Positions 12,430-14,341 of a stretch of 64,000 bases of DNA are shown here, in pieces. Under the pieces are notes generated by a model. That model was not told the DNA's origin. It saw only the letters and a list, made by a program, of their open reading frames with translations, and ran no database searches. Source of the stretch: Escherichia coli (lineage in GTDB: Bacteria > Pseudomonadota > Gammaproteobacteria > Enterobacterales > Enterobacteriaceae); the NCBI RefSeq assembly GCF_003334305.1, contig NZ_QOWS01000024.1; one strand, 5' to 3'. The translations under genes were made by a program, and so were the position numbers. How positions within the stretch are numbered: position 1 is the first letter of the stretch; each line of letters begins with the position of its first letter.

Positions 12430-13713
12430 TTACTTCTTCGCCTCTGCAACCACTTTACTACCCACGCCGCGGTTATTGTATTCCCACATGCGGTTGTAGT
12501 TAGTGTCATTCAGATTGCGCTGTATTTCGTCGTTATCATCTACGCTGCCGGTATTACCCGCAAACGGACGATTAGAGATCACCGCATCGGCCCACGGTTT
12601 AGCCGTGTTAAAACCTTCGTTGATGGCGCTATCACGGATCACCACCTGACCGTTGGTATTGGCATCAACATCCAGCGAGCGGCCCAGTTGCGCCACACCA
12701 TCACCGAAAGCATTGAAACGGCTGTTTACGGCGAGGAAACCGTAGTAAATGTTGGACAGCGTAGCCGGTGCAAACACATACGCTTCTTGCTGAGTACGTG
12801 AGTTCACCACGCGGAATTCGGTGTTATCGAACACCACTGCGCCGCGACCAGAAACGATATCCACATCCCCTTCAATGTAGCTGTTGGTCACCAGCGTACG
12901 CGGCTGACGGTTGGTTTCCAGACGGTTCTGCACACCGCTGTTGGTGACAAAGAAGGTGTTCTGACGACCGAGAATGTTAACGTTGTTAATCTGTACCTGG
13001 TCACCATCAGTACGCAGTGCCACCGCCGGATGGTTACCTGCATCTACGCTATCGCCCAGCGTGTTTTCGATGGTCAGATTTTGCAGTTGCAGGCCATTGT
13101 TTTGTGACCAGAAGACCGCAGAGCAGAGAACACCGATACTGTCGCTGCGTTTGCTCTGGCAGCTATCGTACATATACCACGCTGGTTTACCTGGCATATA
13201 TTTGCCGCGCGGGTTGACGTCGTGACGCCAGTCGGCAGGGCTCATGCCACCATCAAGGGAAAGCCCAATCTTCACATCAATCGGTTTTTCACCTGTACCG
13301 TACAGAGTAATTCCACCCGGAGCGGCAGGGACATATACCGTTCCCTGATACTCACCAGGCATCACGGCAATATACTGGCGCTTGTTGGTACGCTTGATAA
13401 TTGCCGCATCTACCGCCGCCTGAATCGTGGTATGCGTTACACCTTGAGTGCCCGCCGGGCCGACAACAAAGTCAGGTTGCGCAGGCAGGGTAATCGGGGA
13501 AGGATTCCACGCTGCAGCACCTGGTGTCAGGGATGCAAAATAGTGTTGAGCATCGAAATTCTGCGCTTCTTTTGCCGACAGAATCGGGCGAGAAGAGGTA
13601 CCAGGCGCGGTTTGATCAGAAGGACGTTGATCGGGCGGGGTTGAGCTACAGGCGGTCAGCGTCACGCCAAAAGCCAATGCCAGCGCCAGACGGGAAACTG
13701 AAAATGTGTTCAC
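12430..13713 (-). CDS. ybhC: YbhC, outer-membrane lipoprotein with pectinesterase-like fold
   Basis: 427 aa; signal peptide with lipobox LTAC. Confidence 0.9.
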   Translation of the reverse strand: MNTFSVSRLALALAFGVTLTACSSTPPDQRPSDQTAPGTSSRPILSAKEAQNFDAQHYFASLTPGAAAWNPSPITLPAQPDFVVGPAGTQGVTHTTIQAAVDAAIIKRTNKRQYIAVMPGEYQGTVYVPAAPGGITLYGTGEKPIDVKIGLSLDGGMSPADWRHDVNPRGKYMPGKPAWYMYDSCQSKRSDSIGVLCSAVFWSQNNGLQLQNLTIENTLGDSVDAGNHPAVALRTDGDQVQINNVNILGRQNTFFVTNSGVQNRLETNRQPRTLVTNSYIEGDVDIVSGRGAVVFDNTEFRVVNSRTQQEAYVFAPATLSNIYYGFLAVNSRFNAFGDGVAQLGRSLDVDANTNGQVVIRDSAINEGFNTAKPWADAVISNRPFAGNTGSVDDNDEIQRNLNDTNYNRMWEYNNRGVGSKVVAEAKK

Positions 13714-13757
13714 AGGTTGCTCCGGGCTATGAAATAGAAAAATGAATCCGTTGAAGC

Positions 13758-13782
13758 CTGCTTTTTTATACTAACTTGAGCG
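13758..13782. other. attB: Bacteriophage lambda attachment site attB (BOB'), unoccupied
   Basis: Exact CTGCTTTTTTATACTAACTTGAGCG; 15-bp common core GCTTTTTTATACTAA at 13760-13774; lies between gal-side ybhC and bio-side ybhB. Confidence 0.9.
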
Positions 13783-13864
13783 AAACGGGAAGGTAAAAAG
13801 ACAAAAAGTTGTTTTTAATACCTTTAAGTGATACCAGATGGCATTGCGCCATCTGGCAGAGTGA

Positions 13865-14341
13865 TTAACTAAACATCGCAGTAATCGAGGCGCTTGCCAG
13901 AGAGTGGAAATGAACGTTAAACCCGACCATCGCGCCGCTGGCACCTTCATCGACATCAATACGTTCTATATCCAGCGCGTGAACGGTAAAAATGTAGCGA
14001 TGAGTTTCGCCTTTCGGCGGTGCTGCGCCATCGTACCCGGTTTTACCAAAGTCGGTACGCGTCTGCAAAACGCCGTCTGGCATTGCTACCAGACCAGAGC
14101 CAAACCCTTGCGGTAATACGCGGGTATCAGCGGGTAAGTTAACAACTACCCAGTGCCACCAGCCGGAGCCGGTTGGCGCATCCGGGTCATAGCAGGTGAC
14201 GACAAAACTTTTCGTTCCCGCAGGAACATCATCCCACGCCAGATGCGGTGAAATATTATCGCCATCGTAACCCATGCCGTTAAAGACATGACGATGCGGC
14301 AACTTATCGCCATCGCGCAGATCATTACTGATGAGTTTCAT
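13865..14341 (-). CDS. ybhB: YbhB, PEBP/RKIP-family protein
   Basis: 158 aa ORF, expected length and position. Confidence 0.9.
   Translation of the reverse strand: MKLISNDLRDGDKLPHRHVFNGMGYDGDNISPHLAWDDVPAGTKSFVVTCYDPDAPTGSGWWHWVVVNLPADTRVLPQGFGSGLVAMPDGVLQTRTDFGKTGYDGAAPPKGETHRYIFTVHALDIERIDVDEGASGAMVGFNVHFHSLASASITAMFS

Follow-up and report, generated by a model that had tools for sequence, protein, structure and literature searches.

Genes and features of the ybhC-ybhB locus

The segment analyzed here (positions 12430-14341 of the window, a 64,000-nucleotide stretch of the Escherichia coli contig NZ_QOWS01000024.1, assembly GCF_003334305.1) contains two genes, ybhC and ybhB, that flank the attachment site attB of phage lambda. 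The segment extends exactly from the stop codon of ybhC to the start codon of ybhB, both genes being located on the minus strand. The ybhC open reading frame (12430-13713) begins with a GTG codon and encodes 427 amino acids, a predicted outer-membrane lipoprotein whose body is a right-handed beta-helix of the CE8 family, resembling pectin methylesterases. The ybhB open reading frame (13865-14341) begins with ATG and encodes 158 amino acids, a PEBP-family protein predicted to be cytoplasmic. The 151-bp spacer between the two genes (13714-13864) contains the attB core. As a whole, the region is best explained as the textbook gal-bio segment with an empty lambda attB, in which YbhC is a remodelled CE8 lipoprotein and YbhB is a cytoplasmic PEBP protein; we assign a probability of roughly 90% to this reading.

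Several lines of evidence identify the two genes: (i) positions 12200-14600 of the window match, with 100% identity, many complete E. coli chromosomes, in which RefSeq names the genes ybhC, ybhB, and bioA; (ii) residues 29-427 of YbhC are 100% identical to the crystallized protein PDB 3GRH, and YbhB is 100% identical to PDB 1FJJ and 1VI3, so that both are genuine genes rather than chance open reading frames; and (iii) both products score above the cut-offs of their NCBIfam equivalog models, NF007822 for YbhC (731 bits over the full length, cut-off 436) and NF007609 for YbhB (343 bits, cut-off 226). YbhC of E. coli K-12 (b0772; 3GRH) is the same protein in the same genomic position, without any difference. 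The first-pass annotation of this segment, made from the sequence alone, had placed ybhC and ybhB on either side of attB, and its coordinates are exact. The family assignments that it proposed to check with hidden Markov models are likewise upheld (PF01095 and NF007822 for YbhC; PF01161, TIGR00481, and NF007609 for YbhB). The genes, the folds, and the attB site are already known, and the two structures have been available for years; since ybhC, ybhB, and attB are found in every E. coli annotation, the locus itself has little significance as a discovery.

Family, fold, and export of YbhC

The parallel, right-handed beta-helix that characterizes CE8 is present in YbhC. The CE8 model PF01095 matches YbhC with an E-value of 3.3e-10 over residues 195-318, with a second weak stretch; such a partial and weak match fits a divergent member of the family. 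All YbhC homologues carry PF01095 as a precomputed Pfam assignment. The similarity to PDB 4PMH, the CE8-1 protein of Sitophilus oryzae, amounts to 206 bits, and the equivalog model for PemB (NF041901) yields 407 bits where 700 are required. Among CE8 proteins, the body of YbhC has its nearest relatives in the lipoprotein pectin methylesterases of the PemB type. When 1.84 billion cluster representatives were searched, 681 bacterial and metagenomic CE8 relatives of YbhC were retrieved at E <= 0.001. Several giant proteins of 1,700-2,800 amino acids from public assemblies (P0135, P0147, P0150, P0152, and P0165) contain from four to eight separate stretches of the YbhC beta-helix and thus have multi-CE8-repeat architectures.

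The N-terminus of YbhC (residues 1-22, MNTFSVSRLALALAFGVTLTAC; 13648-13713, minus strand) combines a signal peptide with a lipobox: a basic and then a hydrophobic stretch precede the sequence LTAC at residues 19-22 (codons 13648-13659), in which Cys22 is the predicted lipidated residue. This lipobox, noticed in the first reading of the sequence, is confirmed by comparative analysis, as it is kept in the form L[TS]AC in the eight enterobacterial orthologues that were aligned and in P0121, a relative with 67% identity. The Enterobacter orthologue has an apparent TTG start. Cys22 is followed by Ser23-Ser24, with no Asp at position +2, which by the established sorting rule of the Lol pathway predicts an outer-membrane location. 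YbhC would therefore be exported by Sec, lipidated at Cys22, and, because residue +2 is Ser, delivered by Lol to the outer membrane. Proteomes of vesicles include YbhC among the outer-membrane proteins.

The location and the fold bear on the name under which YbhC is found in RefSeq and NCBIfam, 'putative acyl-CoA thioester hydrolase'. For an exported lipoprotein this name is unlikely to be correct: YbhC carries a signal peptide and a lipobox and appears in lists of outer-membrane proteins, and acyl-CoA is absent from that compartment. The CE8 beta-helix also differs from the hot-dog and alpha/beta-hydrolase folds of thioesterases. The name agrees with a general enzymatic screen, in which YbhC was reported to hydrolyze palmitoyl-CoA (Kuznetsova 2005), but a later study did not find this esterase activity (Eklof 2009), both as cited in PMC11982519. 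The thioesterase name is probably wrong, and we regard the corresponding function as very improbable.

Active site of YbhC

In PemA and in the carrot pectin methylesterase, the Asp residue of the QDT motif is the general acid/base and the Asp residue of the DFxFG motif is the nucleophile. We used an alignment of 57 sequences comprising YbhC, eight orthologues, and 48 near-full-length representatives from the search described above. The first catalytic Asp is replaced in YbhC, where Gln251-Asn252 (12958-12963, minus strand) form a QNT motif in place of the canonical QDT; pairwise HMMER alignments with 4PMH and 8TMS also set QNT against QDT, and PAVAL against QAVAL. In PmeC5, the residues at the equivalent positions, Asp231, Asp253, and Arg326, are catalytic; Asp231 corresponds to Asn252 of YbhC. 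The second catalytic Asp is retained as Asp285 (12859-12861, minus strand), although it is found within DIVSG instead of DFxFG, and the catalytic Arg is retained as Arg345 (12679-12681, minus strand), within LGRSL instead of LGRxW, so that the Trp is lost. Furthermore, YbhC has GEYQG where the canonical CE8 sequence is GxYxE, and Pro229 replaces the oxyanion-hole Gln of QAVAL in E. coli, E. fergusonii, Salmonella, one Citrobacter, and the relatives P0121 and P0122. Thus, the full set of CE8 catalytic residues (the QDT Asp, the DFxFG Asp, the RxW Arg, and the oxyanion Gln) is not found in YbhC, whereas Gln251, Asp285, and Arg345 are kept.

The distribution of these substitutions in the alignment follows the YbhC clade. 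The QNT motif is common to all sequences of the clade, down to the 46%-identical P0122, in which it reads RENT, and it is confined to the clade. Outside the clade (at most 46% identity), QDT is missing from just three sequences, and D-F/Y-x-F/Y-G and RxW are found in nearly all. The PemB-type lipoproteins (NF041901) and 4PMH have in common with YbhC the CE8 beta-helix, the N-terminal DQTAPGT-SRPIL extension, the second catalytic Asp, and the Arg, and PemB is also a lipoprotein; they differ from YbhC at each of the altered positions, having QDT, DFxFG, RxW, GxYxE, and Gln rather than QNT, DIVSG, RSL, GEYQG, and Pro229.

The loss of the QDT Asp together with the changes in the other three motifs, and with Pro229 in E. 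coli and Salmonella, suggests that the YbhC lineage has most likely lost the ability to de-esterify pectin by the canonical mechanism. Two considerations weigh against this conclusion: the retained Asp285 and Arg345 may still permit some hydrolytic chemistry, and an Asn residue at the acid/base position is not proof of inactivity. The first-pass annotation had described YbhC as having a beta-helix esterase fold. The fold is corroborated by the identity to 3GRH and by the CE8 membership, but the word 'esterase' is doubtful, as the catalytic Asp is replaced throughout the clade and, according to PMC11982519, neither reported activity was reproduced.

An opposite possibility is that YbhC is a working pectin methylesterase that, like PemB of soft-rot bacteria, acts on methylated oligogalacturonides from the diet. 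It would account for the scores against the PemB model and against 4PMH, which is an active insect pectinesterase of the bacterial type, for the lipoprotein architecture shared with PemB, and for the retention of Asp285 at the nucleophile position and of Arg345. However, the PemB score is far under its cut-off, Asn252 replaces the catalytic Asp clade-wide, the Trp of RxW and the aromatic residues of DFxFG are lost, and Pro229 occupies the position of the QAVAL Gln. The neighbors of ybhC in Salmonella, Enterobacter, and the 67%-identical relative are the hut and pgl genes rather than genes for pectin utilization. Experiments described in PMC11982519 found no pectin activity of YbhC. Given this evidence, there is very little chance that YbhC is an ordinary pectin methylesterase.

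The same motifs indicate that the NF007822 model is loose. Proteins P0123, P0124, P0126, and P0127 pass its cut-off although they keep QDT, D-F/Y, and RxW; the exact DFxFG motif is present only in P0123 (DFVFG).

Conservation and genomic context of ybhC

The altered active site raises the question whether ybhC is a pseudogene in the making. We rejected this explanation, since the ratio of nonsynonymous to synonymous substitution rates (dN/dS) of ybhC is 0.066 in comparison with Salmonella and 0.095 in comparison with Enterobacter (dS exceeds 1, so these ratios are approximate), and since 5417 of 5426 complete E. coli genomes (99.8%) carry an intact ybhC. The gene is under strong purifying selection. 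Because of this strong conservation, YbhC most likely still functions in the envelope, where this putative PemB derivative would bind a non-pectin ligand or slowly hydrolyze one.

In Salmonella, Enterobacter, and the 67%-identical relative (loci L005, L008, and L009), ybhC is located between the hut operon (hutI-G-C-U-H) and pgl-ybhA-modCBA, with no adjoining ybhB. The pgl-ybhA neighborhood of P0121 and P0122 is the same as that of the other orthologues. In E. coli, ybhD-H-I-J lie between pgl and ybhC, and attB-ybhB-bioA are on the other side. Among the genomes compared, the adjacency of ybhC and ybhB is specific to E. coli, as the three other loci lack ybhB beside ybhC. A functional link between the two genes, considered as a candidate, was therefore rejected.

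The lambda attachment site and its occupancy

The 15-bp attB core GCTTTTTTATACTAA (the common core O) has one exact match in the window, at 13760-13774 (0.08 matches expected by chance). It lies between the gal-side ybhC and the bio-side ybhB-bioA, at a distance of 46 bp from the start codon of ybhC (on its upstream side) and of 90 bp from the stop codon of ybhB (on its downstream side). The site in the window does not differ from the known attB (BOB') of phage lambda in the gal-bio interval; it is unoccupied. No tRNA genes were found in the window, which fits the use of an intergenic att site by lambda.

In other genomes, lambdoid prophages are inserted exactly at this position, with the core repeated at both junctions. 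A 501-bp probe across attB is contiguous in 3487 of the 5426 complete E. coli genomes. Nearly all the remaining genomes (approximately 1,938) have the probe divided between two separate places, the pattern seen in each of the split examples listed. The break points correspond to probe positions 241-259, that is, to 13760-13778 of the window, the core itself. Thus, a lambdoid element occupies attB in about 36% of the sequenced E. coli. On the ybhC side of one occupied genome (attL), the core is followed by the P' arm of lambda and then by int and xis, both directed towards ybhC. On the ybhB side of another (attR), a degraded prophage end was observed, containing remnants of phage tail fibers and a P-arm-like sequence that ends at the core.

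Integration would exchange all sequence more than 46 bp upstream of ybhC for phage DNA, and, after prophage induction, the pL/int transcripts would enter ybhC in sense orientation. The predicted read-through matches the classical 'escape synthesis', in which transcription proceeds from the prophage towards gal. With the core situated only 46 bp before the start of ybhC and int directed towards the gene, rewiring of ybhC expression is possible in strains that carry such a prophage.

It had also been proposed that the position next to attB makes ybhC and ybhB easily disrupted by imprecise excision of the prophage. The lambda bio and lambda gal transducing phages of the textbooks do arise by aberrant excision across these genes, and engineered strains with a deletion of ybhB and bioAB exist. 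Yet, in spite of the high occupancy of attB, both genes are almost always intact, ybhB in 5411 of the 5426 genomes (99.7%) and ybhC in the even larger number given above. Site-specific integration, being conservative, leaves both reading frames untouched. Aberrant excision seldom occurs, and the excised host DNA enters a transducing phage from a lysing cell and does not give rise to a surviving lineage with a deletion. At the population level the claim lacks support, and frequent loss of the genes in this way is highly implausible.

One inspected genome, in which the attB probe matched with its ybhC half alone, proved to be an engineered recombineering strain, delta(ybhB-bioAB)::lambda-Red-tetR-bla. 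The genotype delta(ybhB-bioAB)::lambda-Red is standard in the literature on multiplex automated genome engineering, and thus laboratory strains can do without ybhB. On E. coli records classed as plasmids, ybhC and ybhB were each found in two places; possible explanations of these copies are misassembly, F-prime-like elements, or plasmids that resemble transducing phages and carry the attB region.

YbhB, a PEBP-family protein

The description of YbhB as a homolog of PEBP/RKIP is well founded. The PF01161 domain matches residues 23-157 with an E-value of 6.9e-42, the model of the YbhB/YbcL subfamily (TIGR00481) scores 196 bits (cut-off 57.75), and the pocket motifs are intact: DPDAP at residues 52-56 corresponds to DPDxP, and G-E-T-H114-R115-Y116 corresponds to GxHR(Y). 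The prophage-encoded paralogue YbcL of E. coli (PDB 1FUX; 172 bits) has the PEBP fold and the pocket motifs in common with YbhB. In contrast to YbcL, which has an N-terminal signal peptide, YbhB lacks one, since the YbcL model aligns to it only from profile position 23; YbhB should therefore be cytoplasmic.

YbhB shares the domain family (PF01161) and the residues of the anion-binding pocket with the eukaryotic PEBP/RKIP proteins and the plant FT/TFL1 proteins. The NCBIfam names 'kinase inhibitor' (also the RefSeq product name) and 'YbhB/YbcL family Raf kinase inhibitor-like protein' follow from this homology to mammalian RKIP. That YbhB indeed inhibits a kinase would agree with the common fold and pocket motifs, but the name was carried over by homology alone, and the YbhB-type family is widespread in prokaryotes, which have no Raf signaling. 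To our knowledge, YbhB has no partner kinase or other bacterial target. The Raf-kinase and florigen roles need eukaryotic partners that are absent from E. coli, whereas the bacterial PEBPs form a separate prokaryotic branch, and the conserved pocket of two His residues and one Asp has been argued to indicate that these proteins are not kinase inhibitors but enzymes acting in the metabolism of small molecules (PMC8793217). We thus find kinase inhibition most improbable. With its PEBP fold and intact anion pocket, YbhB would most likely bind or process a small phosphorylated metabolite in the cytoplasm.

The families of both proteins had been called eukaryote-like, and this label did not survive comparison, both families being widespread in bacteria. 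For YbhB it is wrong because the corresponding group COG1881 is present in 594 of 1309 prokaryotic genomes, and the eukaryotic PEBPs are probably of prokaryotic ancestry (PMC8793217). For YbhC it is wrong because CE8 is plentiful in bacteria, as is evident from the number of relatives retrieved.

Transcription of ybhB and signals in the spacers

The bioA gene (from 14400, minus strand; named after the RefSeq annotation of the identical chromosomes) is separated from ybhB by a 58-bp spacer (14342-14399, minus strand) that has no terminator-like site, and a strong Shine-Dalgarno sequence, AAGGAGG, precedes the ATG of ybhB. The short spacer and the missing terminator-like site suggest that ybhB is probably co-transcribed with bioA, which would make it the last gene of the leftward bio transcript. 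A literature search on the control of a bioA-ybhB operon by BirA found nothing relevant.

An 11-bp GC-rich hairpin was predicted by RNA folding at 13832-13858 (minus strand), 6 nucleotides past the ybhB stop codon. A second, weaker stem with T-runs is located beyond it, at approximately 13790-13824. The 81-nucleotide stretch containing both (13790-13870) folds at -25.7 kcal/mol (z = -5.6), and none of 200 shuffled sequences folded as well. The hairpin is probably the end of the leftward bioA-ybhB transcript, which would thereby terminate just before attB. Two points count against this scheme: the stem is not directly followed by a T-run, and co-transcription is deduced from the spacer length and the missing terminator-like site. 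A scan for promoters and terminators in 12150-14450 produced no more sites than in shuffled sequence, and detected neither a promoter of ybhC nor a terminator of ybhB; the simple terminator scan missed the hairpin because no T-run directly follows the stem.

The element TACACTT, described as a conserved non-palindromic site upstream of enterobacterial ybhB (PMC8793217), is found at 14366-14372 (minus strand), 25 nucleotides upstream of the ybhB start codon. Because the window contains five copies where 4.9 are expected, its presence here gives no independent support for the site.

Other features of the window

The ybhJ gene (plus strand), found in both the list of open reading frames and the raw sequence, ends at 12196 and is convergent with ybhC. 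The two genes are separated by a cluster of REP/BIME repeats (repetitive extragenic palindromic sequences and bacterial interspersed mosaic elements) at 12207-12420, recognized from its direct and inverted repeats: two direct-repeat families spaced by 92-93 bp and a perfect inverted repeat of 14 nucleotides. The cluster explains the many additional BLAST places per genome (median 24). It remained below every Rfam gathering score. Matches above the gathering score to RF02564 (naRNA4) or RF02751 (ES036) were observed elsewhere in the window, at 44019-44089, 22038-22079, and 38742-38784, all on the minus strand; these small-RNA matches probably correspond to REP-type repeats. On the other side of the locus, bioB starts at 15776 (plus strand) in the list of open reading frames. 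A molybdenum-cofactor riboswitch (RF01055, 103.6 bits) was detected at 23344-23488 (plus strand), presumably upstream of moaA.

Functional implications

For YbhC, the comparison of active sites provides a clean and testable reason for the absent pectinesterase activity. We tentatively propose, at somewhat less than even odds, that the YbhC clade is a lineage of former pectinesterases in which the replacement of Asp by Asn converted a PemB-like enzyme either into a non-catalytic outer-membrane lipoprotein that binds glycans or esters, or into an enzyme with new chemistry on a substrate of the envelope or the host other than pectin. As a second possibility, of the same tentative standing, ybhC expression would be rewired by a prophage at attB; if true, this would apply to approximately one third of E. 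coli strains. The looseness of NF007822 has a consequence beyond E. coli, as the model spreads a doubtful thioesterase name to probable true pectin methylesterases. YbhB represents, among prokaryotes, the PEBP/florigen family, and the biochemical activity of this family continues to be debated. Both YbhB and YbhC belong to the 'known unknowns' of the best-studied bacterium, a gap that is already recognized in the field.

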